Positions 4,190 through 30,173 of a DNA stretch of 37,249 nucleotides are shown here, piece after piece (position 1 is the first letter of the stretch; each line of letters opens with the position of its first letter). A program made the translations under genes and the position numbers. Origin of the DNA: Minisyncoccota bacterium (lineage in GTDB: Bacteria > Patescibacteriota > Minisyncoccia > Phycocordibacterales > EsbW-18); the NCBI GenBank assembly GCA_033811555.1, contig JAPXOG010000005.1, positions 1 through 37,249 of the forward strand. Direction: 5' to 3'. The notes beneath the pieces were generated by a model. The model was not told the origin of the DNA, did not search any database, and saw only the letters and a list, made by a program, of their open reading frames with translations.

Positions 4190-4304
4190 TTTAAATTCTT
4201 ATTTGGATGATCAGGTTTTTTACTAAGATTCAGAAGTGTCATTTATTTGTAAATAAAACACTTTGTATATTTCACAAAGATTTAATCTTGTTACAATAAA
4301 GAGC

Positions 4305-5168
4305 ATGGGACATCTTTTTGATAATCAGGTTCGTGCACTTGAACTTACAGCTATAAACATCCGCATGTCGGTTGTAGATATGCTAGAAGATGCAGGAAGC
4401 GGACATACTGCAGGGGCGCTTGGTATGGCAGATATTTTTTCCGCACTTTATTTTCATATTTTAAAACACGATCCGAAAAAACCAGATTGGGAAGAACGTG
4501 ATCGCCTAATTCTTTCAAACGGACATATTGTACCGGTGAGGTATGCAGCAATGGCACACGCAGGATACTTTCCAATATCAGAACTAAAAACTCTTAGGAA
4601 ATTTGGCTCACGCCTGCAAGGACATCCTGAACGTGATCGTTTGCCTGGCCTGGAAACTACATCTGGTCCTCTGGGCTCAGGTCTTTCACAGGCGGCAGGG
4701 TATGCGTATGCAACGCGTATGGATGGAAAGAAGTTTCGAATATACTGTGTGCTTTCTGATGGAGAACTACAGGCAGGAAATGCTTGGGAGGGCGCAATGT
4801 TTGCTGGAAATAATGCTCTCTCCAATCTTACAGCGATAGTTGATCGTAACAATATACAAATTAGCGGTACGACTGAGGAAGTGATGCCGTTGGAACCTCT
4901 AGTAGACAAATGGAGTGCGTTTAAATGGAATGTTATTGAAGTAGACGGACATAATATTACGTCATTTATTGATGCAATAGATGAGGCAAGAGCAATTTCA
5001 GAGAAACCGACCGTTGTGATAGCACATACGATTCCTGGAAAAGGAATAAAAGAGATCGAGCATGATTTTCGTTGGCACGGCAAACCTCCTTCAAAAGATG
5101 AAGAGAAAAAATTTTTGAAGGAATTGCGAACACTTAGAGGAACTATAGAAGCAAGTGATAATGATTAA
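4305..5168 (+). CDS. tkt: Transketolase, N-terminal (TPP/PP-binding) subunit of a split enzyme
   Basis: GSGHTAGALGMADIFSALYF, LSNGH, GPLGSGLSQAAG and SDGELQAGNAWE are transketolase N-half motifs. The ATG at 4305 is preferred over the TTG at 4263; the start is uncertain. Confidence 0.9.
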   Translation: MGHLFDNQVRALELTAINIRMSVVDMLEDAGSGHTAGALGMADIFSALYFHILKHDPKKPDWEERDRLILSNGHIVPVRYAAMAHAGYFPISELKTLRKFGSRLQGHPERDRLPGLETTSGPLGSGLSQAAGYAYATRMDGKKFRIYCVLSDGELQAGNAWEGAMFAGNNALSNLTAIVDRNNIQISGTTEEVMPLEPLVDKWSAFKWNVIEVDGHNITSFIDAIDEARAISEKPTVVIAHTIPGKGIKEIEHDFRWHGKPPSKDEEKKFLKELRTLRGTIEASDND

Positions 5169-6150
5169 ACAGGAACAAAAATTAATACAGGAAGTATTGA
5201 ATGAGAGCATTGAGAAAATTCCGACACGTGATGGGTTTGGACGTGGATTAGTAGAAGCGGGGAAGAACGATTCTAGAGTTGTAGTTGTGTGTGCAGATTT
5301 GGAAGAATCTACTCGTGCTGAGTGGTTCCATAAGGAGTTTCCTGATAGGTTTATTGAAGTTGGAGTAGCTGAGCAAAATCTTGCAACTATTGCATCAGGA
5401 ATGGCAAATTATGGCAAAATTCCGTTTATAACAAGTTATGCGACATTTTCTCCGGGACGTAACTATGAGCAGATACGTACGACTATTGCGCTTAACGATG
5501 TTCCGGTAAAAATCGTCGGAAGTCATGCGGGTGTTTCTGTAGGACCTGATGGTTCAACTCATCAAGCACTTGAAGACATAGGTATGATGCGTATGTTACC
5601 TAATATGATGGTGATTGTGCCAGCCGACGCTGAGGAATCGAGAAAAGCTACAGTTGCAATTGCGCAAACAAATAGTCCTGTATACATACGTATAGGACGC
5701 GCTCCATCGCCACTATTTACTACGCAAGAAACACCTTTTGAGATAGGGCGTGCCGAGATCTTATGGGAATCAGATAGGCCGCAGGTAGCTCTTATAGCTT
5801 GTGGAGTCTTAGTACACAATGCTCTTGTTGCTGCGAAAAAATTACAAGACAACGGCGTGGGCTCTATCGTTTTAAACAATCACACAATAAAACCAATGGA
5901 TAAAAAAACGATTTTAGATGTAGCACGACGTTGTGGTTCGGTAGTTACAATAGAAGAACATCAAATGGCAGGTGGCATGGGATCAGCCGTAGCTGAGGTT
6001 CTTGTTCAACAATACCCAGTACCGCATGAATTTATTGGAATACATAATCTATTTGGACAATCAGGAACGCCAGAAGAGCTATTTGAGCACTATAATCTGA
6101 GCGTAGACTCTATTGTTTTGGCAGCACAGAAAGCGGTTTCAAGGAAATAA
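5155..6150 (+). CDS. tkt: Transketolase, C-terminal (pyrimidine-binding plus C-terminal domain) subunit
   Basis: FIEVGVAEQNLATIASGMA, GSHAGVSVGPDGSTHQALEDIGMMR. Overlaps the N-subunit gene by 14 nt, the typical split-tkt arrangement. Confidence 0.92.
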   Translation: MIMIKQEQKLIQEVLNESIEKIPTRDGFGRGLVEAGKNDSRVVVVCADLEESTRAEWFHKEFPDRFIEVGVAEQNLATIASGMANYGKIPFITSYATFSPGRNYEQIRTTIALNDVPVKIVGSHAGVSVGPDGSTHQALEDIGMMRMLPNMMVIVPADAEESRKATVAIAQTNSPVYIRIGRAPSPLFTTQETPFEIGRAEILWESDRPQVALIACGVLVHNALVAAKKLQDNGVGSIVLNNHTIKPMDKKTILDVARRCGSVVTIEEHQMAGGMGSAVAEVLVQQYPVPHEFIGIHNLFGQSGTPEELFEHYNLSVDSIVLAAQKAVSRK

Positions 6151-12373: not shown

Positions 12374-12838
12374 ATGATAATAGGAGTTTCAGAAATTAAA
12401 CAATTACGTGATCGGACTGGGTTGCCGATGGTTCAATGCAAAGAGGCCCTAGAGTATTCAGGTGGTGATGTTGAAAAGGCACTTGAGTTCTTGAAAGAAA
12501 AGGGCGCAGTTATCGCTTCAAAGAAACAAGATCGTAGCTTAGGATCGGGTTCTATACAGGCATATGTTCACGGTCATGGGTCGGTAGCCGCACTAGCGGA
12601 ACTTCTATGTGAAACAGATTTTGTGGCACGAAATCCTGAGTTTCAGGCACTTACAAAAGATATTGCAATGCAGATAGCAGCAACAGAGGATGCAATTTTA
12701 GAACAGGGTGTGGAAGAGATACTTAAACAACCATTTTTTAAAGACCCTAGTGTTACTATTGCAAATCTGATTGAAGGAGCAGTTCAAAAGTTTGGAGAAC
12801 GAACCGAACTAGGTCGATTTGTAAAGTATACTGTATAG
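12374..12838 (+). CDS. tsf: Elongation factor Ts, short form (154 aa)
   Basis: N-terminal UBA-like motif IKQLRDRTGLPMVQCKEALEYSGGDVEKALEFLKEKG, then LCETDFVARNPEFQ. Sits 8 nt downstream of rpsB, the conserved rpsB-tsf order. Confidence 0.9.
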   Translation: MIIGVSEIKQLRDRTGLPMVQCKEALEYSGGDVEKALEFLKEKGAVIASKKQDRSLGSGSIQAYVHGHGSVAALAELLCETDFVARNPEFQALTKDIAMQIAATEDAILEQGVEEILKQPFFKDPSVTIANLIEGAVQKFGERTELGRFVKYTV

Positions 12839-12868: not shown

Positions 12869-13351
12869 ATGACGATACTTATGTGGATTTGTGCCGGTTC
12901 AGCATTTCTCCTTTTTGTTTTTTGGGTTTTTAAGGGATGGGAAATTCGGCGTAGTAATCCGACCTTTGTAACTCTTTTTTTTCAGAGACACTCTCCAACT
13001 TCTGAAAAGATGTTCAATGTGTGCGTTGCGTATGTACGTAGTTTCATTGTGCGATGTATAAGGGCAATTCGTAGAGTGTTTAAATCATTGACGAATAAAA
13101 TTATCGCATTAGTTCGGACTGCGTTCGTTGTTTTTGGTGCACATCTAATACGTATTGCGCGTGGCGAACATTTGCTTTCTGAAAGTAGAATTCCTTCTAT
13201 TTATTTTAAACTTTTGCATCGGCATAAAAAAAATATCAATGGATCTGAAATCCCTAAAGGAATCGCTCAGCCTGATATACCTAGACGTATTAGAATACAG
13301 GTATCTAATGAAGATAGGGGTGGCGCAACTTCCCTGGAACAGGTAGAATAG
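12869..13351 (+). CDS. Hypothetical basic protein with an N-terminal TM helix
   Basis: 160-aa ORF with a hydrophobic N-terminus (ILMWICAGSAFLLFVFWVF) and an Arg/Lys-rich remainder. No recognised motifs; the only long ORF in this interval. Confidence 0.45.
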   Translation: MTILMWICAGSAFLLFVFWVFKGWEIRRSNPTFVTLFFQRHSPTSEKMFNVCVAYVRSFIVRCIRAIRRVFKSLTNKIIALVRTAFVVFGAHLIRIARGEHLLSESRIPSIYFKLLHRHKKNINGSEIPKGIAQPDIPRRIRIQVSNEDRGGATSLEQVE

Positions 13352-14259: not shown

Positions 14260-16683
14260 ATGAAGGTTTCTCTATCATGGCTTCAGACATTTTTTGAAAC
14301 TCCGCTTCCTGATGCGGAGGATATCAAGCAGGTACTTACTTTCGGAGCGTTTGAGGTTGAGGATGTAGAGGGTATTGGAAATGATGTGGTATTTGATGTG
14401 AACGTGCTACCAAACCGAGCTCATGATTGCCTTTCACATAGAGGTATCGCAAAGGAGCTTTCGGTTTTATTGGATATTCCAATGAAGCGAGACCCACTTT
14501 TAGATCAGAAGAATTCATGTGTTTGCATAGGAGATCTTTCTGTGGTTGTAGATGACAGTAATGCATGCCCTGTATACCATGCGGCACGCATATCTGGTAT
14601 CACAGTAGGTCCTTCTCCTGATTGGTTGGTTAAGCGTCTTGAAACCATAGGACAGCGTTCAATTAATAATGTAGTGGATGCTACAAATTTTGTGATGCAT
14701 GAGTTAGGTCAGCCTTTGCATGCTTTTGACACAGGAAAACTAAGTTTACGTGACGGCATTGTCTCTCTTCGTGTGCGTATGGCACGAGCAGGAGAACGAA
14801 TACATATTCTTGGTGGTGAAGAGATAGAGCTTTCCGAACGAATACAACTTATAACGGATGCATCGTCTGAGGAGCCTCTTGCTATCGCAGGAATAAAAGG
14901 TGGTGCACATGCAGAAGTGGATAATGCAACGACAGACATCGTATTGGAGTCGGCGAAGTTTCATCCATCACTGACGCGCAAAGCATCTCAGATTCTGAAA
15001 ATTCGCACAGATGCTTCACAGCGTTTTGAGAATGAAATTCCAGATGAACTTCCAGCGCAAGCTATGCAAACACTTATTGAACTTATTCTTGAGGTGGCTG
15101 GAGGTAAGCAAATCGCGTATTCGTATGTGCAACGACAAATGCCGAAACTCCCATATATTGTGGGATTTTCTTCTTCTGAAGTTAACGCACTTCTAGGAAC
15201 ACAACTTTCTGACGAAGAAGTAGCTCGCATTCTGCAACGGTTTGGGTTTGAATTTGAAATTGTAAGAGATCCGCGCGCTAAAATTGTAGATTGCGCGCGT
15301 AGCGCTATTGGAGCACAGTATAAGCGCCTTGCCCGTATACGATTTGATACTCCAGAGAGTTTCAATTGTTCTTCATTAACATCATGGTGTGCTATTGAAG
15401 CAGGATATTCATTTGGCATTGCTCGTATAGCTATAGATCAGTTTGCATATCTTGACCACGTTGATGAAAAAGACGCTCTTCCTGGAGATTTTGTGTTTAC
15501 AAATACTGGAGTTGTACAAAAACAAGATGGAGTTATGTATTCTCGAGTTCTAGATACAATAGTACAGGATGAATCTATACGAACACAGACTCTAGAGTTT
15601 CTTCCAGGTACAGATATTGGGCATGGTGTCGATCATGTTGGAGTGTATGTTGGTGACGGAAAGGTAATACATGCTTCATCTAGTGCAGGAGAAGTTGTTG
15701 AAGAACTTTTGTATGAAAGCAAAGGTTTTAGTAAAGAAAAGTGGTACAGAAGAGTTGTGCATAGTAATGAATCGCGGTTTGCGGTAACTATTCCTTATAC
15801 ACGTCTTGATTTGCGTTTGCCTTCCGACATCTTTGAAGAGATAGGACGTGTATATGGGTACAAAAATATACCAGCTAAACAATTGCCACCTCGTGAGTTG
15901 GTCCCAGAGAGTAATGAAGTGTTTCTTTGTTCAGAAATAATAAGGAAAACTCTTGGCAATCTTGGGTTTCTTGAAGTGTATTCATACTCATTTCGAGATG
16001 TTGGCAAAGTATTATTGTCTAACCCGTTGTCTCAGGATAAGGCTTATTTACGAGAAACTCTTGCAGGAGGTATAGCCGACGATCTGGAAAAAGGAGAATA
16101 TCACGCTTCATTTTTGGGTTTGCAAAGTGTTTTACTGTATGAGATAGGCACTGTGTTTCACAGTAATGAAGAGCGTGTTCATGTGTGCGTAGGAGTTCGT
16201 TCACTTGATTCTAAAAATAGAGATTCTCGTTCAAAAGAAAAATTACTTGAAGCGAAAGAGGCGCTTGAGAGAGTACTTGGAATTAATCTTGATGTGCAAA
16301 TAGGGGATGAGACATTTGAGTTTGACATTGAAAGGGCGATTTCTGGGAAAAAATTGTGGAGCACGGATTTAGCAGGAGTTGCTCCTGGAGTTGTTTATGT
16401 TGCGCCATCATCGTACCCACATGTTCTTCGTGACATAGCGGTATGGGTTGCTGATGGAAAAGGTGATTCTCATACAGTTTTAGAAATGGTTCAAAAAAGT
16501 GCAGGAGATTTACTGGTGCGTGCAGATTTGTTTGACACGTTTACAAAAGATGGAAGAACTTCTTACGCTTATCATCTTGTGTTTCAGTCACGTGAGAAGA
16601 CACTAACTGACCATGAGATAAACGATATCATGGAGAAAGTAACTGTTCTTCTTGATGCTCAAGAAGGTTGGCAGGTACGATAA
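14260..16683 (+). CDS. pheT: Phenylalanine--tRNA ligase beta subunit lacking the B2 OB fold and carrying an inserted NlpC/P60-like domain
   Basis: B1 (MKVSLSWLQTFF...), then directly LPNRAHDCLSHRGIAKEL. B3/B4 (INNVVDATNFVMHELGQPLHAFD). B5 split by an insert (see the next feature). C-terminal VLRDIAVWV...YAYHLVFQS (FDX-ACB-like). Confidence 0.92.
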   Translation: MKVSLSWLQTFFETPLPDAEDIKQVLTFGAFEVEDVEGIGNDVVFDVNVLPNRAHDCLSHRGIAKELSVLLDIPMKRDPLLDQKNSCVCIGDLSVVVDDSNACPVYHAARISGITVGPSPDWLVKRLETIGQRSINNVVDATNFVMHELGQPLHAFDTGKLSLRDGIVSLRVRMARAGERIHILGGEEIELSERIQLITDASSEEPLAIAGIKGGAHAEVDNATTDIVLESAKFHPSLTRKASQILKIRTDASQRFENEIPDELPAQAMQTLIELILEVAGGKQIAYSYVQRQMPKLPYIVGFSSSEVNALLGTQLSDEEVARILQRFGFEFEIVRDPRAKIVDCARSAIGAQYKRLARIRFDTPESFNCSSLTSWCAIEAGYSFGIARIAIDQFAYLDHVDEKDALPGDFVFTNTGVVQKQDGVMYSRVLDTIVQDESIRTQTLEFLPGTDIGHGVDHVGVYVGDGKVIHASSSAGEVVEELLYESKGFSKEKWYRRVVHSNESRFAVTIPYTRLDLRLPSDIFEEIGRVYGYKNIPAKQLPPRELVPESNEVFLCSEIIRKTLGNLGFLEVYSYSFRDVGKVLLSNPLSQDKAYLRETLAGGIADDLEKGEYHASFLGLQSVLLYEIGTVFHSNEERVHVCVGVRSLDSKNRDSRSKEKLLEAKEALERVLGINLDVQIGDETFEFDIERAISGKKLWSTDLAGVAPGVVYVAPSSYPHVLRDIAVWVADGKGDSHTVLEMVQKSAGDLLVRADLFDTFTKDGRTSYAYHLVFQSREKTLTDHEINDIMEKVTVLLDAQEGWQVR
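15265..15777 (+). other. NlpC/P60 (papain-like cysteine hydrolase) domain inserted in the PheT B5 domain
   Basis: ARSAIGAQYK..., FNCSSLTSW (Cys370, nt 15367-15369), PGDFVF, DHVGVYVGDGKVIHAS (His459, His471). Flanked by the B5 halves ...ILQRFGFEFEIV and FAVTIPYTRLDLRLPSDIFEEIGRVYGY. Confidence 0.75.
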
Positions 16684-16943
16684 AAATAAAAAAGAGAATA
16701 GAATATTCATGGTTTTTACTGTTCAAGTAATCGATAAAACCGTGTAATTATCTAATAACGTATTTGTAGTGCTTAGATAAATAATCAATATAGTAAAGTC
16801 TATCTCCAGATAATTCATTGAATATTTTTTCGTATATATTGAGGGCGCTTAGTTTTCCATCCTATTTTTGAAGAGCATTTTCAAGACATATTTGTGAAGA
16901 TTTTTTGGTTAATGAATAAGAGAGTTTTGTGCTTGTGATTTAC

Positions 16944-16973
16944 AAAAACCCCTTGTTTTTCAAGGGGTTTTTG
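16944..16973 (+). terminator. Intrinsic terminator about 260 nt downstream of pheT
   Basis: AAAAACCCCTT-GTTTTTC-AAGGGGTTTTT: stem CCCCTT (16949-16954) / AAGGGG (16962-16967) flanked by an A-run and a T-run. Confidence 0.65.
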
Positions 16974-16980
16974 CTATACT
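16972..16980 (+). promoter_or_regulatory. Extended -10 (TGcTATACT) upstream of gyrB
   Basis: TGCTATACT at 16972-16980, overlapping the terminator T-run. It would give a leader of about 35 nt to the gyrB ATG at 17021. Confidence 0.4.
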
Positions 16981-17020
16981 CTATATGCGTTGATGAGCGA
17001 TTTTTTATTTTCTAAATACA

Positions 17021-19308: not shown

Positions 19309-20370
19309 ATGGAACTTCTATCAGCACCAAAAAAGAAAATAGTGAAAGACAGCGTTCGTATGGCACTTACGGTCATCGGCGGTATTACCGTTATAGTGGC
19401 AATTATTTGGGTTGGTATTCGAGGATTAAGTCTTTTTCCGAACGTGAATGCATTTCTTGCAAACGCAGTATCAGGTATCCGGTCAGTATTTGTTCCTACT
19501 GAACGAATAGTGATAGGAACGGTTGATAGTCAGATTGCAGTGAACAAGCCGTTTACTCTTGTTTGGGAGCATCGAGGTAATACCAGCGATGGTACATACA
19601 CTTTTTCGTATGAGTGTCAGGGCGGTGTGTTTCTTGCTCGTCGGGATGAAGGAATGCAGAAAACTATTTTCTGCAATACTGAAGTTCCGATTAAAGAAAA
19701 TGAAACCGAGATTGGATTTGTGGCTATAGGTTCAGTTCCTAGTGTTGCTGAGATACCAGTAAAGATTACATTTACACGAGCTGGTCAATTGTTCGCATCT
19801 GTTTCAGGTGAAGCTAAATTGTTAGTTCAAAGTGAGTATTTTGATACTGCCACAAGCACGGAAGTTGTTACGAAAACTCCAGAAGGAGCTACTACAATTC
19901 CACATAATACGAATACCAACGTGCAAGTTCCTCAACAGCACACAATGGTGCCTGTTGTAACACAGCCGTTCTCTGATCCAAATGGTTCTCCTGACCTGTT
20001 TGTGCGCGTTCTTGGATATGGTCTAGTTGATCAAAAGACCGGGGTTTTTACTGAGTTAGACAAGATTCCTTACAATTTACCTTCAGGAAAGCGCGGAGCA
20101 TTACGTTTCCTAGTGGTAAATCTTGGAACAAAAGAGAGTGGAACTTGGGAGTTTTCAGTAGACTTGCCTACTTCACCGTCTTATACATACAAGTCGGATA
20201 AACAACAGACTCTTTTCCCTGGAGATAGGATTGAATATACCATCGGTTTTGACAGCATTCGTAAAGCTACTCATGATGAATATCGCATTGTTGTAGATCC
20301 TAAAAATAAGGTTCATGAAAGCAATGAGGCAAATAACATACACAAAGGAATTGTAATAATTGAAAAATAA
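19309..20370 (+). CDS. Membrane-anchored/secreted protein with a C-terminal CARDB-like domain
   Basis: N-terminal TM (VRMALTVIGGITVIVAIIWVGI). The C-terminus, PDLFVRVLG...RFLVVNLGTKESG...YRIVVDPKNKVHESNEANN, matches the CARDB ending motif (D-P-x-N-x-V-x-E-S-N-E-x-N-N). Confidence 0.7.
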   Translation: MELLSAPKKKIVKDSVRMALTVIGGITVIVAIIWVGIRGLSLFPNVNAFLANAVSGIRSVFVPTERIVIGTVDSQIAVNKPFTLVWEHRGNTSDGTYTFSYECQGGVFLARRDEGMQKTIFCNTEVPIKENETEIGFVAIGSVPSVAEIPVKITFTRAGQLFASVSGEAKLLVQSEYFDTATSTEVVTKTPEGATTIPHNTNTNVQVPQQHTMVPVVTQPFSDPNGSPDLFVRVLGYGLVDQKTGVFTELDKIPYNLPSGKRGALRFLVVNLGTKESGTWEFSVDLPTSPSYTYKSDKQQTLFPGDRIEYTIGFDSIRKATHDEYRIVVDPKNKVHESNEANNIHKGIVIIEK

Positions 20371-20390
20371 TCGCATATACAGTTTTAACC

Positions 20391-21065
20391 ATGAATACTT
20401 ACACGCATCAAAAAAATACGGGAATTGTGAGCGATTTTGTGCATATGTGTAAAACACATCCAGTGCTTGTGGGTTCTTTGTGGTTCGGAGTATTTACCGT
20501 GTTGTTTGGGATTTCTTTGTCGCTTGGAATTGTGCCGAAAATCGAACGTGATGAGTCACCAACTGTATTTGCAGAGATGCAGAAACCACTACCTAAACAG
20601 GAAGAGAAGGTTACAGAGTTGAAAAGTGCACTTCCAGAACGTGTTATTGTTGAGCGCCTAGGTATCGATACAGTTGTTGTAAACCCATTAAGTTCTGATA
20701 TAGCTACTCTAGACGCTGCTCTTTTGCAGGGAGTTGTGCGTCACCCTCTCTCAGGTGACTTAAACGACGAAAGCAATATGTTTTTATTCGGACACTCTAC
20801 GGGATTTCGTGTTGTTCAAAATGAAGCGTTTAAAGCTTTCAATGGTCTGCGAAATGCGAAAAAAGGTGATTTGATACGGGTGCAATCATCCACTGATGAA
20901 TACGTTTATCGTGTTACTAACGTAACTTTGGTTGATGCTCAAGAATCACTGGTATCGTTTGCTACAGGAAAGAAAAAGTTGACCCTTACAACATGTAACT
21001 CATTTGGCGCTAAAGAAGAGCGATATGTCGTTGAAGCAGATTTTATAGGTAGTTATGCTCTGTAA
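20391..21065 (+). CDS. Sortase-family transpeptidase
   Basis: N-terminal TM anchor, catalytic His context FLFGHSTG, the TLxTC motif as LTLTTCNSFG, and a downstream Arg (ERYVVEA). Confidence 0.85.
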   Translation: MNTYTHQKNTGIVSDFVHMCKTHPVLVGSLWFGVFTVLFGISLSLGIVPKIERDESPTVFAEMQKPLPKQEEKVTELKSALPERVIVERLGIDTVVVNPLSSDIATLDAALLQGVVRHPLSGDLNDESNMFLFGHSTGFRVVQNEAFKAFNGLRNAKKGDLIRVQSSTDEYVYRVTNVTLVDAQESLVSFATGKKKLTLTTCNSFGAKEERYVVEADFIGSYAL

Positions 21066-21150
21066 TAACAATATATTAGGGTATTGACTTATACATTAAT
21101 AAATAGTATAATAGAAGGGCGATTAATATAAGAAAGTAAAAATAATAATT

Positions 21151-24100
21151 ATGAAAACAACCACATACGAAAACCTATATCGCATGCCAAAAACCGCCGC
21201 AGTTATTTTAGGTGTATTTCTTGTAGTTGGTGCGATAATCGCTGGGAATGTTGGCGCACAAGACGCAAGTACTAGAACAGAAGGAGATACAACAAGCGAA
21301 CTCATAGCAGTGTCGTCTGGTGAAGGTAGGATATCGTATGGTTCTGGTTCTTCTGCTGGGACTCAATCTGAATGTCAGCTAGACCCGTGGTCTGATCTTC
21401 GTGCCCCAGATGGTAGTCCATTTGATCCGTACAGCAATCCTCGTGTTGTTATAGACGGCAATTCTGCAAGCATTTCTGTAAAGAACTTTTCTGATTCTTG
21501 TAGTTATCGTATTAATCTAGCTTCTTATGAAGTCTTTGATCCAGAAATGCCATTGTTTGTACAAACACAAAAACTTTTTGATAGCACATGGATAACCATT
21601 CAACCAGGACAGACGCAAACGCTTTCCGTAGACCTTCCTGAATGTGCATTTCAAGTTGATTTATTTGAAGGACCTTTTATTCCAACTACTAATCCGAACT
21701 TTGACGGTGTTACTTACCCTGACCTTCGTATTTTCGATTGGTTAGTAAAAATGGATTTGCCACTATGCACAACTGTAACTGTCTGTGAACCTTGGAATGA
21801 TCTTCGAGCTCTAGACGGCGGAGTTTTTGATCCTTTTAATAATCCTAGAATAATAGTAGAAGGAAATATAGCTAAAATTTCTGTAAAGAACTTTTCTGAT
21901 TCTTGTGTTTATAGAGTAAATTTTGCTTCTTACGAAGTTTTTGATCCAGAAATGCCATTGTTTGTACAAACTCAAAAACTTTTTGCCAGTGAGTGGCAAA
22001 TTCTGCAACCAGGACAATCTAGAACTCTTATGGTAAATTTGCCTGATTTACCTGAATGCGCATATCAAGTAGAATTATTTGAAGGGCCTTTTATTCCGAC
22101 CACAAATCCCAACTTTGATGGCATTACCTATCCGGACTTGCATATTCTAGATTGGCTTATAGATATGGATTTGCCTTTGTGTGGTACGACTGGCCCTCAA
22201 ACTGCATCCCTAAAACTCGTTAAGCACGTCATAAATGACAACGGAGGAACTGCAGTAGTTAGCGATTTCAACTTGTACGCAAATGACATCAAGTTTGTAA
22301 GTGGAGTAGCTCAGAATATTCAACCAGGTACATACAAAGCACGTGAAGATCAACTTCCCGGATACACAGCATCTGATTGGTCAGGAGACTGTGCTGCTGA
22401 TGGAACAATCACACTTGCCCCTGGTGACAACAAAACTTGCCACATCACTAACAATGACAATCCTGAGATTCCAAATGCAGCAGTGCTTACTGTTATAAAG
22501 ACGGTTATCAATGATGATGGGGGTACTGCTGTAGTAGGAGATTTCAAGTTGTTTGTAACTCAAGGGCGTAGCCTTCGAGGTGATGTTCTTGTACGAAGTG
22601 GTGAACCGAATAAATTTGCTCCAGGAAAGTACAAGGTATATGAAGTACAGCTTCCTGGATACACAGCATCTGATTGGTCAGGAGACTGTGCAGCAGACGG
22701 AACCATCACTCTTGCTCCTGGTGACAATAAAGTTTGCCGTATAACTAACAATGACAATCCTGTAATTCCACCAAGAGTAGCAACCCTAAAACTCGTTAAG
22801 CACGTCATAAATGACAACGGAGGAACTGCAGTAGTTAGCGATTTCAACTTGTACGCAAATGACATCAAATTTGTCAGTGGAGTATCTCAGAATATTCAAC
22901 CAGGCACATACAAAGCACGTGAAGATCAGATTCCAGGATACACAGCATCTGATTGGTCAGGAGATTGTGCTGCAGATGGAACAATTACGCTTGCTCCTGG
23001 TGATAATAAAACTTGTCACATCACTAACAATGACGATCCTGTAATTCCTAATGCAGCAGTGCTTACTGTTATAAAGACGGTTATCAACGATGATGGAGGT
23101 ACGGCTGTTGTGGGAGATTTCAAGTTGTTTGTAACCAAAGAACGAGTATTAGGACGAAGTCTACTAGATGAAGTTTTGGTACGAAGTGGCGAACCGAATA
23201 AATTTGCTCCAGGAAAGTACAAGGTATATGAAGTACAGCTTCCCGGATACACAGCATCTGATTGGTCAGGAGATTGTGCTGCTGATGGAACCATCACTCT
23301 TGCTCCTGGTGACAATAAAGTTTGCCGCATCACTAACAATGATATAGGCGGAGGCGATGATGACGATGACGACGATGATGATGATGGAGGCGGAGGGGGT
23401 GGAGGAGGTGGTAGTAGTTCACGACGCCGACCTAAAGTAACTCTTTTCTCAAATCCCGAAATCTTAGGAGCCTCTGTTTCACTCACGCAAATTCCTTATA
23501 CAGGTCTTGGCACAAGTATTCTGCAGATCGCGCTGTTTATGATTGGACTGGTAGCGCTCTCTGGAGGTGCAGTATATCTTTTTGCTCGACGTAGAATAGT
23601 CGAAGTCCACACAGAAGATGTTCATATAGATAGCTCTACAACAAGTACTGCACAGCAAGAAGAGGCACGAATCCTTTATGAAGAAACGATAGCACCACCT
23701 GTAGACGAAGCATTTGCATCATATGATGAATATGCGTACGCAGATGATATATCTACTCAAGAACAGTTAACAACTCCAACTACACCAGATAATTTGCCAG
23801 TTGCTACAGCACCGGTTTCCGTTGGATCAGTAGTGCGCCAGAATCGAGTAGCAGAGATGGCGGAACATCACAAGAAAAACAACGTATCAGTTGCTAGACT
23901 ACAGGGCGTAGCTCGTTCTTCTCAGGTACTTATTTCAGACGATGGTATTAAACTTATCGTGGCAGCAGGTGAAAACGATGAAGTTAAATCAATAGAGCGT
24001 CTTACGCAGGTTATTGAGGTAGCAAAAACACGGTACCCACGCGAAGACGGATGGCTAGTTCTTGATGCTACACGGGTTCGCGAATCACTATTCATTTCTA

Positions 24101-24495
24101 TCCTTACGATGGTTCCTCTATTTATTGAATGGATAGTGCGAGGTGAAGACAAGCATGTGTTTGCATTTATGCGAATGCTTAAGGCACAGAACCAGCCAGT
24201 ATCGGACTTTGTACGTAAAGTTGTTGCTGAACTTGATAATGCGCACAGGGCACGTCTTGAAGGATCAGAAGATATATCGGTAGATCCACATGTTGCAGAG
24301 ATTACATACCATCTCAGTAATCGTGATTTGGAGGCGATAGTTTCCGAATTGCTACTGGGTGTTGACGAAAGATATGATTCTGCTTATACGTCTGTTCGAC
24401 TTGCACTTACTCGTGTTCTAGATATAGTTCGTTCTCGAAGCATGCTCCGCATAGGAGGGACGTACGCATTTGATAAAGAACAGAGAGAGGCATAA
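21151..24495 (+). CDS. 1114-aa repeat-rich surface protein with an internal sortase-type sorting signal and a roughly 300-aa C-terminal tail domain
   Basis: Signal/TM (AAVILGVFLVVGAIIAGNVGA). Two Cys-rich modules of about 135 aa. Four Ig-like modules of about 95 aa (V.NDNGGTAVV.DF...PG.YK..E...PGYTASDWSGDC...CxITNND). A poly-Asp/poly-Gly/Ser linker. Then IPYTG, a 27-aa mostly hydrophobic segment (TM) and RRR, followed by 299 further residues in the same frame. Confidence 0.85.
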   Translation: MKTTTYENLYRMPKTAAVILGVFLVVGAIIAGNVGAQDASTRTEGDTTSELIAVSSGEGRISYGSGSSAGTQSECQLDPWSDLRAPDGSPFDPYSNPRVVIDGNSASISVKNFSDSCSYRINLASYEVFDPEMPLFVQTQKLFDSTWITIQPGQTQTLSVDLPECAFQVDLFEGPFIPTTNPNFDGVTYPDLRIFDWLVKMDLPLCTTVTVCEPWNDLRALDGGVFDPFNNPRIIVEGNIAKISVKNFSDSCVYRVNFASYEVFDPEMPLFVQTQKLFASEWQILQPGQSRTLMVNLPDLPECAYQVELFEGPFIPTTNPNFDGITYPDLHILDWLIDMDLPLCGTTGPQTASLKLVKHVINDNGGTAVVSDFNLYANDIKFVSGVAQNIQPGTYKAREDQLPGYTASDWSGDCAADGTITLAPGDNKTCHITNNDNPEIPNAAVLTVIKTVINDDGGTAVVGDFKLFVTQGRSLRGDVLVRSGEPNKFAPGKYKVYEVQLPGYTASDWSGDCAADGTITLAPGDNKVCRITNNDNPVIPPRVATLKLVKHVINDNGGTAVVSDFNLYANDIKFVSGVSQNIQPGTYKAREDQIPGYTASDWSGDCAADGTITLAPGDNKTCHITNNDDPVIPNAAVLTVIKTVINDDGGTAVVGDFKLFVTKERVLGRSLLDEVLVRSGEPNKFAPGKYKVYEVQLPGYTASDWSGDCAADGTITLAPGDNKVCRITNNDIGGGDDDDDDDDDDGGGGGGGGGSSSRRRPKVTLFSNPEILGASVSLTQIPYTGLGTSILQIALFMIGLVALSGGAVYLFARRRIVEVHTEDVHIDSSTTSTAQQEEARILYEETIAPPVDEAFASYDEYAYADDISTQEQLTTPTTPDNLPVATAPVSVGSVVRQNRVAEMAEHHKKNNVSVARLQGVARSSQVLISDDGIKLIVAAGENDEVKSIERLTQVIEVAKTRYPREDGWLVLDATRVRESLFISILTMVPLFIEWIVRGEDKHVFAFMRMLKAQNQPVSDFVRKVVAELDNAHRARLEGSEDISVDPHVAEITYHLSNRDLEAIVSELLLGVDERYDSAYTSVRLALTRVLDIVRSRSMLRIGGTYAFDKEQREA
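21373..22182 (+). repeat. Tandem duplication (2 units of about 405-411 nt) encoding the Cys-rich N-terminal modules
   Basis: For example CCAGAAATGCCATTGTTTGTACAAAC at 21541 recurs at 21946. At protein level, CQLDPWSDLRAPDG...MDLPLC matches CEPWNDLRALDG...MDLPLC. Confidence 0.85.
22204..23343 (+). repeat. Tandem duplication (2 units of about 576 nt, each made of two subunits of about 290 nt) encoding the Ig-like modules
   Basis: Offset is exactly 576 nt. The run 22208-22292 is identical to 22784-22868 (85 nt). The motif GGATACACAGCATCTGATTGGTCAGGAGA occurs four times. Confidence 0.9.
23491..23595 (+). other. Cell-wall sorting-signal-like module (IPYTG, hydrophobic helix, RRR)
   Basis: ATT CCT TAT ACA GGT at 23491-23505 encodes IPYTG, followed by LGTSILQIALFMIGLVALSGGAVYLFA and RRR. 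Confidence 0.6.
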
Positions 24496-26295: not shown

Positions 26296-26367
26296 AGCTT
26301 TAAACATAGAAAACGTAATAAGCAGTATGAATTATGAAAATAAACAAAATGCTTAATGAATAGTATG

Positions 26368-27228
26368 GATATTGTTCCTCAGCTTATATTGAATAGTATT
26401 ATTGCGGGAGCAATATATACAATGATTGCCCTAGGTTTCAATCTTATCTATGGAACAACAAAATTTTTTGACTTAGGTTATGGATCATTTATTGCAATAG
26501 GAGGGTATTCAGTATTATTTTTTTATAGAACCCTTGGATTTAATCTTTATATCTCGATCCCACTCGGTATCTTTATTGCGGGTCTAGTGGGGTTTGTTGT
26601 ATATCGTTTAATATATTCCACACTAAGATCTAGAAAATCTTCAAACATGGTTTTGCTTGTAGCATCTTTAGGTGTTCTAACGACTATCCAGGCGATAATA
26701 GCAATATTTTTTACAAGTCAATTCCATGTACTTTCTTTAAAAAATAGCTCTAACCCTATAAGTATTTTTGGAGGAGTTATAACACAAACTCAATTAGTCA
26801 CGTTTATTCTGGGAATTGCAGTCATGGTGCTCATAGCCACCGTTTTTCGTTGTTCGTTGTTTGGAAAAACGATAAAAGCTATAGGAGATGATGAGGAAGT
26901 CTCTAGAATAGTCGGAATCAATACTAACAATATAATTGGATGGGTTTTTTTCATTGGTTCAGCCATAGGGGGTCTCGCGGGTATTCTAATTGGATTTGAT
27001 ACTGGGGTTGAGCCGATGATGGGTCTATCGTTTCTTTTGAAAGGCATGGTTGCCTCTATAATTGGTGGAATAGGGAATGTGTACGGCAGTGTACTGGGGG
27101 CTTTCCTGCTTGCATTTATCGAAAACTTTGGGATATGGAAAATTTCCGGAGAATGGAAGGATGCTGTCGCCTTTTCAGTTCTAATCGTTTTCCTTTTATT
27201 CAGACCACAAGGGGTATTGAAAAGATAA
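26368..27228 (+). CDS. livH: Branched-chain amino acid ABC transporter permease (LivH family)
   Basis: MDIVPQLILNSIIAGAIYTMIALGFNLIYG is the canonical LivH start. Multi-TM, with GKTIKAIGDDEEVSRIVGIN. The ATG at 26368 is preferred to 26356. Confidence 0.9.
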   Translation, partial: DIVPQLILNSIIAGAIYTMIALGFNLIYGTTKFFDLGYGSFIAIGGYSVLFFYRTLGFNLYISIPLGIFIAGLVGFVVYRLIYSTLRSRKSSNMVLLVASLGVLTTIQAIIAIFFTSQFHVLSLKNSSNPISIFGGVITQTQLVTFILGIAVMVLIATVFRCSLFGKTIKAIGDDEEVSRIVGINTNNIIGWVFFIGSAIGGLAGILIGFDTGVEPMMGLSFLLKGMVASIIGGIGNVYGSVLGAFLLAFIENFGIWKISGEWKDAVAFSVLIVFLLFRPQGVLKR

Positions 27229-27229
27229 T

Positions 27230-28096
27230 ATGGAATATTTAATACATCTTCTAATATTAATTTCGATTTATGCAATTCTAGGTCTCTCCTTGGATTTGGT
27301 AGTTGGACTAACAGGACTCCTTAGTGTGACTCAAGCCGCATTTTACGGAATTGGAGCATATACTACAGCAATACTCTTAACGAATCTTAATATAAATTTC
27401 TTTTTATCTATAATTTTCGGAATGATCATAGCGGGAGTTAGTGGTCTAGTAATTGGACTTGTGCTTTCAAAATTTAAAGGGGATTATTATGCGCTGGGCT
27501 CGTTTGGATTTAATGTAATCGTTTATACAATTTTACTTAATTGGCAGTCGCTTACTGGAGGTCCTTTAGGAATTCCTGGAATTTCTCGTCCAAATTTATT
27601 TACATTTTCCTTTTCTAACAACCTCTCATTTTTGATTTTATCTATTGTTATTTTTCTGATAATTTTTGGAATCTATTATTTTATATCTAAGTCCTCTTTT
27701 GGACGAGTGCTTAGAGCTATTCGGGAAGATGAAGAAGTTATATCTGTTTTTGGTTATCATACACTTTGGTTCAAAATGTCTATTTTTGTGATTGGAGCTA
27801 TGCTTGCATCTGTTGCTGGTTCACTCTTTGCAAGTTATATAACTTTTGTCGACCCTTCATCATTCACATTAACTGAATCGATTTTTGTTCTTTCTATAAT
27901 CATTCTGGGAGGACTAGCCAATCGTAGAGGAGCAATTATTGGGGCTGTTTGCTTGGTTTTGCTCCCAGAGATTTTACGATTTGTAGGATTTCCATCTGAA
28001 ATAGCCGCTCAAATAAGACAGGCAGCGTATGGTCTTATTCTAATACTGCTTATGCTATATAGACCCCAGGGTTTGGTGGGTGAATATAAATTTTGA
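27230..28096 (+). CDS. livM: Branched-chain amino acid ABC transporter permease (LivM family)
   Basis: GLTGLLSVTQAAFYGIGAYT, GRVLRAIREDEEV, multi-TM. Starts 1 nt after livH. Confidence 0.9.
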   Translation: MEYLIHLLILISIYAILGLSLDLVVGLTGLLSVTQAAFYGIGAYTTAILLTNLNINFFLSIIFGMIIAGVSGLVIGLVLSKFKGDYYALGSFGFNVIVYTILLNWQSLTGGPLGIPGISRPNLFTFSFSNNLSFLILSIVIFLIIFGIYYFISKSSFGRVLRAIREDEEVISVFGYHTLWFKMSIFVIGAMLASVAGSLFASYITFVDPSSFTLTESIFVLSIIILGGLANRRGAIIGAVCLVLLPEILRFVGFPSEIAAQIRQAAYGLILILLMLYRPQGLVGEYKF

Positions 28097-28155
28097 ACTT
28101 TACAAATTGAGTATTTATTATAAAATAGGAATCTATTAATAGTAAAAACTTTTAT

Positions 28156-29253
28156 ATGAGAAACAAAAAAATAATCCTTGTAGGGGTTTTAATAGTTTTG
28201 GTAGTTATTGTTTTAATTACTGCGAAGAATAACAATCAGACTAATACCTCTTATAATATTGGAGCAGTAATACCTCTGACTGGTACTGCAGCATACTGGG
28301 GAGAACCAGTTCAACGTGGAATTTTATTGGCACAGGAGACCATAGACAAAAAATTTGGTAACGGAACACTTAAAATTTTAATCGAGGATGGAAAATCCGA
28401 CCCTAAAGAATCTGTATCTGCAGCCCAAAAATTATTATCGATTAATAAGGCAGATGCGATTTATGTTGAACTTTCAGGTCCTAGCTCTTCAGTAGCGCCA
28501 GTAGTAAAAAATGCAGAAAAAATTTATTACTATGGAGCTTTTAACGATAAGGTCGTATCTAATTTTGATAATGCAATAAAAGGGTTTTTATCATATACAG
28601 GTCCTTGTGAATTCTTTGGTAAATATCTAAAAAGTAGTGGTATTAGTAAGGTAGCTATACTTAATCAGTTTCCTGATACAGCACCGTCTTGTGCGGTCGC
28701 TCTTGAGAAGTATATTCCACATGAAAATATTCTATTGCTTGAAAATCTTCCAAAAGACAATGATTTTCGTAGCATACTTTTACAGATAAAAAGTTTCGGG
28801 GCAGGGGCTATCATAGGAATGACTTACGAGGGACCTTCACTTGCTTGGATAAAGCAAATGAAAGATCTAGGAATGAACTTACCAGTTTTAAGTGGGCACG
28901 ATGATGCACTTACTCAAAATATAATTGATACTATTGGTATAAATAATCTAGAAGGAAGTTTATATTTTGATGCAAGAGTCAATCCTGATTTCGTAAACTT
29001 CTATAAAGAAAAATATCCGGATAGCCCAAGTTCAGACCTTATTCCTGCCGGATATGCGTATGAAGGGATAGTTAATCTTGCAGAAGCGATAATTTCTTGT
29101 AAATCAAATGTGTCGTGTACAGTTAAATCGTTTAATAATCGAACAAGTGATGCTGGTGCAATAATTGGAGCAGGATTTAAAAACCGTGTACTCACCTCAT
29201 CGCTGGATTATTATCTGATTAAATCAGGGACCACGACCTTGTTTAATTTTTAA
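28156..29253 (+). CDS. ABC transporter substrate-binding protein (Leu/Ile/Val-binding, Peripla_BP_6-like)
   Basis: N-terminal anchor/signal, then NIGAVIPLTGTAAYWGEPVQRGILLAQETI, typical of LivJ/K-type binding proteins. Confidence 0.8.
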   Translation: MRNKKIILVGVLIVLVVIVLITAKNNNQTNTSYNIGAVIPLTGTAAYWGEPVQRGILLAQETIDKKFGNGTLKILIEDGKSDPKESVSAAQKLLSINKADAIYVELSGPSSSVAPVVKNAEKIYYYGAFNDKVVSNFDNAIKGFLSYTGPCEFFGKYLKSSGISKVAILNQFPDTAPSCAVALEKYIPHENILLLENLPKDNDFRSILLQIKSFGAGAIIGMTYEGPSLAWIKQMKDLGMNLPVLSGHDDALTQNIIDTIGINNLEGSLYFDARVNPDFVNFYKEKYPDSPSSDLIPAGYAYEGIVNLAEAIISCKSNVSCTVKSFNNRTSDAGAIIGAGFKNRVLTSSLDYYLIKSGTTTLFNF

Positions 29254-29422
29254 TAAAAGATTAGATAAAAAATATTTATAGGTTGAGAATGAACAGAGAG
29301 TGGATTATTGAGAACAAGGAGATGTTTGTTGTAGTTGGTTTGTTCTGAGCGTCGTGCATAGGTGTATTTTAGTACAGAAAATTAAAATAATGACTGTACG
29401 TAACTCTTCTAGTTGAAAATAA

Positions 29423-30172
29423 ATGGCTATTTTGTTAACAAAGGATTTAAGGAAGCATTTTGATGGATTTTACGCAGTTAATAAATTAACGATCAATTTT
29501 GAACAAGGATATATTACAGGAATCATTGGACCAAATGGATCAGGAAAATCAACTCTAGTTAATGTTCTTTCAGGGCTGATTCCTTTCGAAGGAGGGGAGG
29601 TGATTATTTCAGGAGAAACTCTGGTTAAAATTCATTCGTATCAAACACTGTCTTTTGGTATGACACGTACGTTTCAGGAGGTGAGATTATTTGAGCAGAT
29701 GTCAGTAATCGATAATATACTAGTAGTTTTAACTGATAGAAGAATTGGGAAGTCCTTTTTTGAAAAACATACTTCTTTTCATTTAGAGAAGGCGGAATCT
29801 TCGTTGAAGAAAGTGGGCCTCTGGGAAAAAAAAGATGAACTTGCTAAAAATTTATCATATGGGCAACGCAAACTGCTTGAAATAGCTCGTGTTACTGCAT
29901 TGGATCATAATGGGATTAGTGATTTAAAGATTGTGTTATTTGACGAACCATTTGCAGGGTTGTTTCCTGAAATGGTAAAAATTGTTTTGTCGGCCATACA
30001 AGAACTTAGAGAACAAGGAAAAGCTGTTGTGCTAATTGAACACAATATGGAATTGATTCGAATGTTATCAGACTATCTTTACGTTTTAGATTCAGGTGAA
30101 CTGCTAGCTGAAGGAAAACCAAAAGACGTATTGTCCAGGGCAGATGTGATAGAAGCATATCTAGGCGAATAA
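29423..30172 (+). CDS. livG: Branched-chain amino acid ABC transporter ATP-binding protein (LivG family)
   Basis: Walker A GPNGSGKST, signature LSYGQRKLLEIAR, Walker B LFDEP, C-terminal IEAYLG. Confidence 0.9.
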   Translation: MAILLTKDLRKHFDGFYAVNKLTINFEQGYITGIIGPNGSGKSTLVNVLSGLIPFEGGEVIISGETLVKIHSYQTLSFGMTRTFQEVRLFEQMSVIDNILVVLTDRRIGKSFFEKHTSFHLEKAESSLKKVGLWEKKDELAKNLSYGQRKLLEIARVTALDHNGISDLKIVLFDEPFAGLFPEMVKIVLSAIQELREQGKAVVLIEHNMELIRMLSDYLYVLDSGELLAEGKPKDVLSRADVIEAYLGE

Positions 30173-30173
30173 T

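Follow-up and report, generated by a model that had tools for sequence, protein, structure and literature searches.

A papain-like NlpC/P60 domain with a conserved catalytic triad inserted in the B5 domain of the phenylalanyl-tRNA synthetase beta subunit of Patescibacteria

We analyzed the pheST locus of a 37,249-nucleotide stretch of DNA (hereafter, the window; positions 1 to 37,249 of contig JAPXOG010000005.1 from the Minisyncoccota bacterium assembly GCA_033811555.1), which encodes the phenylalanyl-tRNA synthetase (PheRS) of a Campbellbacteria-like Patescibacterium, focusing on a domain of about 170 amino acids that is lodged inside the PheRS beta subunit, PheT. The pheS gene, for the alpha subunit, ends 4 nt upstream of pheT, and the latter is an open reading frame (ORF) of 807 aa without interruption (Table 1). 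The only Rfam family detected over the whole window is tRNA-Thr, and neither a leader nor a riboswitch was found near pheST.

Both PheRS subunits are reduced. PheS scores 286 bits against TIGR00468 (cutoff 237), with residues 7-237 aligned to profile positions 71-323, and by this alignment it is the catalytic core only, devoid of the N-terminal coiled-coil arm. PheT scores 391.2 bits against TIGR00472 (pheT_bact), below the equivalog cutoff of 402.65, because the B2 domain is missing and B5 is split. No B2 oligonucleotide/oligosaccharide-binding (OB) fold was found in the window PheT: there is no PF01588 (tRNA_bind) match, positions ~40-156 of the TIGR00472 profile are unmatched, and window residue 41 is aligned to profile position 157. 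Thus, the losses of B2 and of the PheS arm, both proposed in a previous sequence-only reading of this stretch, are borne out by the two profile alignments. The other PheT domains recognized by Pfam, B3/B4, B5, B6/B7 and B8, are all present in this order, with pheS adjacent. The loss of B2 in many PheRS beta subunits of the candidate phyla radiation (CPR) has already been published (Mukai et al. 2017, PMC5370408).

The insert is located within B5. In the alignment with the Thermus thermophilus PheRS beta subunit, window residues 41-333 correspond to T. thermophilus residues 152-436, and window residues 506-641 to residues 441-584; therefore, approximately 170 amino acids replace a 4-residue hairpin turn between two B5 strands. 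The first half of B5 consists of a strand, two helices and a strand (elements E2-6, H8-15, H21-30 and E34-38 in the AlphaFold2 (AF2) model of B5 plus insert, hereafter the module), and P512, R515 and D517 of the second half are invariant among 25 homologues. The insert alone matches the Pfam family NLPC_P60 in two stretches, scoring 40.5 bits where the gathering cutoff is 23. When the module profile was compared with the Protein Data Bank, the best match was the Clostridioides difficile autolysin 7cfl_A (E = 1.8e-24), with which the canonical motifs PY..G, FDCS, PR.S.DQ, GDLVF and HVGIY.G.G..IHA are aligned, and the flanks matched B5 of solved PheRS beta subunits. AF2 predicts B5 and the insert as one unit, with a predicted local distance difference test (pLDDT) score of 91.3 and a predicted template modelling score (pTM) of 0.87; Foldseek superimposes this model on 7cfl_B with a TM score of 0.90 and a root-mean-square deviation of 1.8 A, and the top 50 matches for the module are all NlpC/P60 domains of the DL-endopeptidase type, including the Bacillus cereus structure 3h41. 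The model of the full-length PheT retrieves 1pys_B as the best match (E = 3e-47), along with NlpC/P60 structures. In the insert, the cysteine precedes the histidines, that is, the order is not permuted, and the two histidines lie on consecutive predicted strands. Judging from these profile matches and models, the insert is a complete, canonical P60-type NlpC/P60 domain placed in a hairpin on the surface of B5, a winged-helix domain. The sequence-only reading had made essentially this proposal, and all its parts have stood: nucleotides 15265-15777 correspond exactly to residues 336-506 of an uninterrupted 807-aa ORF; B5 breaks off and resumes in register, as seen both in the split Pfam match and in the T. 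thermophilus alignment; the motifs that it quoted, with Cys370, His459 and His471, are present where it had placed them; and the NlpC/P60 identity agrees with the Pfam profile, the predicted fold, the Foldseek matches, the topology and the conservation described below.

Table 1. Coordinates of the features of the window pheST locus and of the C39_2 genes discussed in the text
Feature	Coordinates	Strand	Evidence or remark
pheS, PheRS alpha, 239 aa	13536..14255	+	Pfam tRNA-synt_2d at residues 6-236, 299.9 bits
pheT, PheRS beta, without B2, with insert, 807 aa	14260..16683	+	AF2 full-length pLDDT 87.9; Foldseek 1pys_B
B3/B4 editing domain, residues 102-281	14563..15102	+	Pfam B3_4, 182.4 bits
B5 first half, residues ~296-335, ends ...RFGFEFEIV	15145..15264	+	Pfam B5, first stretch; T. 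thermophilus alignment to beta 436
NlpC/P60 (MEROPS C40) papain-like cysteine hydrolase, residues 336-506	15265..15777	+	Pfam PF00877
Cys370 codon, predicted nucleophile, motif F-N/D-C-S-S	15367..15369	+	starts AF2 helix H73-83 (module residue 73)
Optional ~20-aa sub-insert in NlpC/P60, residues 418-438	15511..15573	+	pLDDT 54-64 in the full-length model
Family-specific beta-hairpin, residues 440-456, I-R-x-E-x-x-E-F/Y-x-P-G-T-x-V-x-x-G	15577..15627	+	directly before the catalytic His
His459 codon, predicted catalytic His, motif D-H-V-G-x-Y	15634..15636	+	starts AF2 strand E162-168
His471 codon, predicted third triad residue, motif V-I-H-A	15670..15672	+	on AF2 strand E171-176
B5 second half, residues 507-540, FAVTIPYTRLDLRLPSDIFEEIGRVYGYKNIP	15778..15879	+	Pfam B5 at 500-534 = profile 33-67/67; T. 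thermophilus beta 441 onward
B6/B7 catalytic-like module, residues 542-673	15883..16278	+	Pfam tRNA_synthFbeta, 36.1 bits
B8 FDX-ACB anticodon-binding domain, residues 717-807, plus stop codon	16408..16683	+	Pfam FDX-ACB, 66.2 bits
C39_2 genes in other loci	L090:4754-5287; L091:4602-5222; L092:1047-1628; also L009, L012, L014, L016, L020, L038		

The domain differs from 7cfl, the sole canonical structure compared residue by residue, by a beta-hairpin of about 17 aa in front of the catalytic histidine, which is a gap in 7cfl in the profile alignment and is present in at least 97% of all modules, fused as well as stand-alone (see below); its glycines G450 and G456 are retained in fractions of 0.93 and 0.94, respectively, of the fused modules, and 0.96 and 0.94 of the stand-alone ones. 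The window's clade also has the adjacent sub-insert of about 20 aa, which is optional and occurs in ~13% of the fused and ~85% of the stand-alone modules. Other assignments within or near the papain-like fold were rejected: LRAT/PLAAT (PF04970) matches only ~22 residues around the histidine motif, with 16-17.8 bits against a cutoff of 24.3, and its permuted order is not the one observed here, whereas the matches to Peptidase_C92 and Amidase_5 are below the threshold or partial. The fold search with the module retrieved none of the known aminoacyl-tRNA editing or trans-editing folds (B3/B4-CtdA, AlaX, YbaK/INS, Dtd, CP1); the CtdA and B3/B4 matches of the full-length model fall on the resident B3/B4 domain.

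A trivial explanation for such a protein, raised as a caveat in the sequence-only reading, would be a chimeric assembly or two genes artificially joined by a frameshift. However, the ORF is uninterrupted, no jump in GC content marks the insert, B5 is back in register after it, and AF2 yields a confident model of the whole protein as a single chain. Moreover, the exact window PheT is encoded, in the same gene order, in the independent Logan assembly SRR31357136, and NCBI, JGI, ENA and Logan together provide 214 fused homologues of full length. We consider the probability of such an artifact to be negligible; chimeric assembly or chance resemblance is excluded.

The fused architecture is widespread. 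Among the 120 best database homologues of the window PheT (40-65% identity, from many samples), 119 share its domain arrangement; these proteins originate from metagenome-assembled genomes of Campbellbacteria, Kaiserbacteria, Yonathbacteria, Zambryskibacteria and Paceibacterota in NCBI, JGI, ENA and Logan. Of the retrieved PheTs of 700 aa or longer, 214 carry the module. A search of 1.84 billion representative sequences with the module profile produced, at E<=1e-30, 221 clusters (50% identity), which mostly consist of proteins of ~770-840 aa in which the module occupies approximately residues 295-540. A word-indexed search with the insert only returned 3 matches and none of the fused PheTs. 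The annotation of these proteins is inconsistent: NCBI labels some of the PheTs 'C40 family peptidase' or 'hypothetical protein', and some of the stand-alone modules 'PheRS subunit beta'.

In an alignment of 121 rows, of which 120 contain the insert, Cys370 and His459 are found in 120 of the 120 insert-bearing sequences and His471 in 119 (the exception has a tyrosine), so that the conservation of the triad among orthologues, at which the sequence-only reading had aimed one of its checks, is nearly complete; Y354, F368, D393, D410, F413, G450 and G456 are also nearly invariant. This pattern indicates that the NlpC/P60 domain is under long-standing, strong purifying selection, with the triad intact.

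The insert is far from universal in Patescibacteria. In a sample of 80 GTDB loci, drawn from the matches listed for the generic B5 motif EE[IV]GR..GY and representing a presence/absence sample rather than a census, 15 have the insert and 65 lack it, and most of the other patescibacterial PheTs, at ~600-700 aa also devoid of B2, are without it. Conversely, the distant 960-aa PheT of 'Patescibacteria bacterium UBA7522' (L023:2762-5647) keeps the B2 OB-fold and contains, at the same B5 hairpin site, a divergent NlpC/P60 domain (29% identity) with an intact triad and a different elaboration in front of the catalytic histidine. Either the insertion is older than the loss of B2 or the site was occupied by a second, separate acquisition. 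Considering this protein together with the B2-less PheTs that lack the insert, the insertion is not coupled to minimisation. Accordingly, the description of the insert in the sequence-only reading as a gain in a minimised enzyme stands in part: the enzyme is indeed B2-less and arm-less, but B2-less PheTs without the insert are common and L023 retains B2.

The module also exists outside PheT. The search with the insert detected proteins of ~230 aa that align with PheT residues 316-528 (41% identity, E = 3e-50) and consist of a shortened first half of B5, the NlpC/P60 domain and the second half of B5, with B1, B3/B4 and B6/B7 gone. Approximately 64 clusters of such proteins, 197-241 aa in length, were identified in Parcubacteria, Minisyncoccia and Wolfebacteria. 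Their NLPC_P60 scores are in the range of 50.7 to 74.3 bits, and the triad is conserved in them as well (Cys in 63 of 63, His in 63 of 63, and the third residue His in 61 and Gln in 2). The N-termini start with MKNKWIYRIGLS... and have no hydrophobic leader. Pfam detected no wall-binding domains either in the window PheT or in the stand-alone modules, and the insert itself is internal to a cytoplasmic synthetase, with no export signal; therefore, it works in the cytoplasm.

The conservation of the catalytic residues across both forms bears on the possibility that the insert is a pseudo-peptidase, that is, a structural or docking module that replaces the lost tRNA-binding or assembly surfaces (B2 and the PheS arm) or anchors PheRS to a partner. 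The insert is found mostly in PheRS that lack B2 and the arm, B5 and the insert are predicted to form a rigid body, and non-catalytic NlpC/P60 domains exist, RipD (4jxb) being among the fold matches. Pseudo-enzymes, however, usually lose their catalytic residues, whereas Cys370 and His459 are invariant, and His471 nearly so, across ~280 fused and stand-alone modules that are as little as ~30% identical. Nor does the insert track the losses, given the many equally minimised PheRS without it and the B2-retaining PheT with it. The acidity of the NlpC core (median isoelectric point 5.5) is weak evidence in the same direction: B8, the anticodon-binding domain of PheT itself, is likewise acidic, so that this property is uninformative on RNA binding. 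Pure docking, one of the roles floated in the sequence-only reading, is thus weakened by the invariance of the triad, and we regard a non-catalytic module as quite improbable.

The genomic context of the stand-alone modules is unusual. In 11 of the 11 loci inspected (L001-5 and L089-94), the module gene adjoins a gene for a single-chain PheRS or, where that gene is truncated, its 3' end. The single-chain enzyme, 380-396 aa long, consists of the PheS catalytic core (tRNA-synt_2d) and an FDX-ACB domain and is encoded at the pheS position (e.g. L001:6856-8004, within the two-gene locus L001:6856-8687). The two genes overlap by 4 nt in 8 loci and in L092, where the contig ends within the upstream gene, i.e. 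in 9 of the 11; in L093 and L094, they are divergently oriented and still adjacent. In 9 of the 11 loci, gyrB comes next, as in the window synteny, and in L093/94 the downstream gene was not identified. In the PheS-core tree (all trees here are neighbour-joining trees without outgroups), the cores of the single-chain enzymes form one divergent clade with a constant C-terminal extension of ~104 aa. These proteins score below the cutoffs of both TIGR00469, pheS_mito (231.8 bits against 258), and NF051887, SrmL (244.8 against 300). From these data, it follows that this lineage discarded B1, B3/B4 and B6/B7, transferred B8 to the alpha chain and retained B5 with the NlpC/P60 domain, a unit that has since diverged to ~33-37% identity with the catalytic residues unchanged. 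A tree of the modules suggested five independent origins of the stand-alone forms, a topology that we treat as probable noise, given the single clade in the PheS-core tree; what we claim, from the sequence comparisons, is one or more reduction events. Full-text literature searches, with most subscription journals outside their scope, found no paper on a bacterial single-chain PheRS. A bacterial enzyme of this mitochondrial type is of interest for the evolution of synthetases and for reasoning on antibiotic targets.

The converse loss has occurred as well. The 643-aa PheT P0059, encoded on three independent contigs and in the GTDB representative L034 (insert-less loci L006:6001-7932, L007, L008 and L034), lacks the insert exactly at the hairpin (...FGFAYT-PG-FTVVAP...) and has an intact PheT body, the highest-scoring one among the sampled relatives. 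The PheT-body tree nests it with the window's clade, and the PheS tree places it as the sister of the window. Given this clean loss in the P0059/L034 lineage, the insert is dispensable for a working PheRS. A gene of 230 aa that follows the insert-less pheT in L006 was considered as a candidate detached module and rejected (hhalign probability 0.1%); its product looks like an unrelated membrane protein.

A second papain-like enzyme recurs next to the module. A gene of the Peptidase_C39_2 family is located directly downstream of pheT in 5 of the 11 informative insert-bearing loci, compared with 1 of the 35 insert-less, B2-less loci, and directly downstream of the module in 3 stand-alone loci (Table 1); in P0315 and P0319, it is fused to the stand-alone module. 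The C39_2 proteins have no signal peptide and are cytoplasmic. In the window, the site that is occupied by the C39_2 gene in other lineages corresponds to an AT-rich spacer of 337 nt between pheT and gyrB (16684-17020, GC ~0.29-0.34), in which there is no ORF or Rfam family.

The state of the resident editing domain is pertinent to the possibility that the NlpC/P60 domain acts on aminoacyl groups. We take T249, N250, H261, G315, E334, T354 and A356 of the T. thermophilus beta subunit to be the B3/B4 editing site. The aligned window residues, T142, N143, H154, G211, E230, T250 and A252, are identical, and all seven positions are invariant or nearly so among the 25 homologues. The list of editing residues of the Escherichia coli enzyme overlaps this set (PMC12449066). 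The resident B3/B4 editor therefore looks functional.

Under the main alternative, PheRS-coupled aminoacyl chemistry, Cys370 would attack the ester of aminoacyl-tRNA-Phe or the mixed anhydride of the aminoacyl-adenylate, produced by the adjacent alpha subunit, yielding a thioester that is then either hydrolyzed, for proofreading, or transferred to an amine, as by a Phe-transferase. There is precedent for the chemistry in the NlpC/P60 superfamily, where LRAT and PLAAT form acyl-thioester intermediates on ester substrates, although the LRAT matches here are weak and below the cutoff. In the lineage that lacks the B3/B4 editor, the module is always found beside the PheRS catalytic gene, with the 4-nt overlap in most loci; the stand-alone forms keep the conserved B5 motif of PheT; and the family-specific hairpin beside the catalytic histidine suggests a changed specificity. 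In addition, B5 of the E. coli PheRS touches both the alpha subunit and the helices of the B3/B4 editing domain (PMC12449066), a structural description with which the placement of the insert next to the editing module in the sequence-only reading agrees. Against this alternative, the presumed B3/B4 editing positions are conserved in all fused forms, so that a second editor is not obviously needed, and a close relative whose PheRS is otherwise normal has cleanly lost the insert; these two observations weaken the case for extra proofreading, which the sequence-only reading had also considered. Furthermore, the sequence and fold neighbours are all peptidoglycan-type amidases with the canonical motifs retained, and the enriched partner is another peptidase rather than an RNA-binding protein or a transferase. 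We know of no NlpC/P60 enzyme that acts on aminoacyl-tRNA, and our literature searches on such activity turned up nothing. On balance, PheRS-coupled aminoacyl chemistry appears rather unlikely.

With proofreading and docking weakened, hydrolysis of a small peptide or muropeptide, which was likewise among the speculations of the sequence-only reading, is the most economical reading left. We propose, at roughly even confidence, that the module is an active, semi-autonomous cytoplasmic thiol amidase that is built on a B5 scaffold and acts on a small peptide rather than on tRNA. This proposal is based on the retention of the canonical motifs, the peptidase partner, the survival of the module beyond PheT, its harmless loss and the conservation of the B3/B4 positions. 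In the proposed mechanism, the Cys370 thiolate would attack the substrate to form an acyl-thioester on Cys370, with His459 serving as the general base and His471 orienting His459. B5 would be mainly a structural scaffold, its two halves and the peptidase being predicted as one rigid unit, and the module would be needed neither for aminoacylation nor for B3/B4 editing. The substrate would be a small cytoplasmic peptide or amide, and the most economical guess is a gamma-D-glutamyl-type or another scavenged peptide, as for YkfC-type enzymes; the family-specific hairpin beside the catalytic histidine probably retunes the substrate groove compared to the cell-wall endopeptidases. In several lineages, the module would probably act jointly with the neighbouring or fused cytoplasmic C39-like cysteine peptidase. 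The tie to PheRS might amount to co-expression or tethering only, or else might reflect the supply of an amino acid to the synthetase. As a related lineage retained the peptidase part when most of the host subunit was gone, the module probably has a selected job.

Several observations weigh against this proposal. The PheT-invariant B5 motif (R506, P512, R515, D517 and R519) is largely kept in the stand-alone proteins, and this retention, together with the lasting linkage to PheRS, fits a continuing partnership, physical or functional, with the catalytic subunit better than pure hitch-hiking. The enrichment of C39_2 genes yields p = 0.002 in a Fisher test that ignores phylogeny; one C39_2 gene is located beside an insert-less pheT (L038), and the window itself has none. 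The suggested substrate class is an extrapolation from family membership, and the import and recycling of murein peptides by these organisms is a supposition.

A bolder possibility is that the NlpC/P60 domain is a dedicated catalytic partner of the PheRS active site and represents a new class of synthetase-associated thiol enzymes. In this case, Cys370 would take over the phenylalanyl group, or an aminoacyl group activated by mistake, from either tRNA-Phe or the adenylate, and the resulting thioester would be hydrolyzed or its acyl group transferred. We consider this possibility unlikely. If hydrolysis is the outcome, thiol-based proofreading would have allowed an entire lineage to drop B3/B4 and shrink to a single-chain PheRS; if transfer, the module would take part in tRNA- or adenylate-dependent ligation of Phe to a peptide or a cell-envelope precursor, possibly with the C39-like partner. 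The remaining probability belongs to functions other than those proposed here.

The window PheT combines a synthetase with a catalytic domain of foreign origin that is apparently active. Aminoacyl-tRNA synthetases seldom gain whole foreign catalytic domains, and when they do, the gain is usually important, as in the case of editing domains and eukaryotic signalling domains. Here, a peptidase with all its catalytic residues has stayed embedded in an enzyme essential for translation throughout a large radiation of bacteria that are ultra-small and have reduced genomes, in which spare sequence is quickly lost. Taken together, the loci form a deletion series made by nature (insert in place; insert gone; insert retained after loss of the host subunit; insert joined to a second peptidase), which makes the function directly testable. 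An action on peptides would point to a step of cytoplasmic peptide salvage that has gone unrecognised in amino-acid-auxotrophic Patescibacteria, and an action on aminoacyl groups to a new chemistry of proofreading or transfer.

Apart from pheST, the window contains several other features. A complete Liv-type branched-chain amino-acid ABC importer, with two permeases, a binding protein and two ATPases, is encoded at 26356-30893 and fits an amino-acid-scavenging lifestyle. Upstream of pheST, the tsf gene (12374-12838) encodes an elongation factor Ts (EF-Ts) of only 154 aa, consisting of the UBA/N-terminal domain and the first ~80 residues of the core, and the L095 copy is of the same length; EF-Ts is usually ~280 aa long. 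Between tsf and tRNA-Thr/pheS, there is an ORF of 160 aa (12869-13351) with an N-terminal hydrophobic segment and no Pfam match, and an ORF of similar size occupies this position in L001 and L095. Transketolase is encoded by two overlapping genes (4263-6150), one for the N-terminal, thiamine pyrophosphate-binding part (301 aa) and the other for the Pyr/C-terminal part (331 aa). The region at 19309-24495 encodes a CARDB-domain protein, a sortase and a 1114-aa SpaA-like protein with prealbumin-fold repeats, and is probably a sortase-assembled pilus or adhesin locus.

Both components of the fusion, the bacterial PheRS beta subunit and the C40 peptidases, are well known, and their combination is already present in sequence databases; in full-text literature searches, from which most subscription journals were out of scope, no paper that reports a synthetase with an NlpC/P60 domain was found. 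Compared to the beta subunit of the bacterial heterotetrameric PheRS (T. thermophilus 1PYS/2IY5, E. coli 3PCO), the window PheT has the same order of B1, B3/B4, B5, B6/B7 and B8, with pheS upstream, and 2iy5_B is its best sequence match (3.6e-59). It differs in the absence of B2 and in the presence of the ~170-aa NlpC/P60 domain at the position of T. thermophilus beta 436-441, and its PheS partner lacks the coiled-coil arm. In reviews, B5 itself has been described only as a helix-turn-helix, 'DNA-binding-like' domain, with no assigned function or catalytic role (PMC3275996).

The C40 gamma-D-glutamyl DL-endopeptidases (C. difficile Acd24020 7CFL, E. coli MepS/Spr, Bacillus subtilis CwlO/LytE, B. 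cereus YkfC 3H41) share with the insert the fold, the Cys...His...His order and the motifs. Unlike these enzymes, the window domain has no signal peptide, lipobox or wall-binding domain (SH3b, LysM) and resides inside a cytoplasmic synthetase; it has an extra hairpin of ~17 aa, and optionally 20 aa more, before the catalytic histidine, and where accessory domains would normally be found, it has the two halves of B5. The substrates of YkfC-type enzymes are free murein peptides, not the wall itself, so that these enzymes provide the nearest functional analogy for a cytoplasmic copy.

The reduced lineage shares the architecture of catalytic core plus FDX-ACB (B8) with the mitochondrial single-chain PheRS (human FARS2, 3CMQ/3TUP), but its enzyme is bacterial, is encoded at the pheS locus and is always accompanied by a gene for the B5 remnant with NlpC/P60, which is absent from mitochondria. 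The canavanyl-tRNA deacylase CtdA, of the B3/B4 fold, is likewise a PheT-derived piece that became an independent small protein with a catalytic role (PMC12449066); in the present case, the surviving piece is B5 with a foreign peptidase domain rather than the B3/B4 editor. Finally, the editing domains of other aminoacyl-tRNA synthetases (CP1 of LeuRS, IleRS and ValRS, INS of ProRS, N2 of ThrRS) are also hydrolase domains inserted in or appended to a synthetase, but none of those is a thiol enzyme of the papain-like type, and they are known to act on mischarged tRNA, whereas here the inserted domain has a peptidase fold and a dedicated editor is already present in the same subunit.

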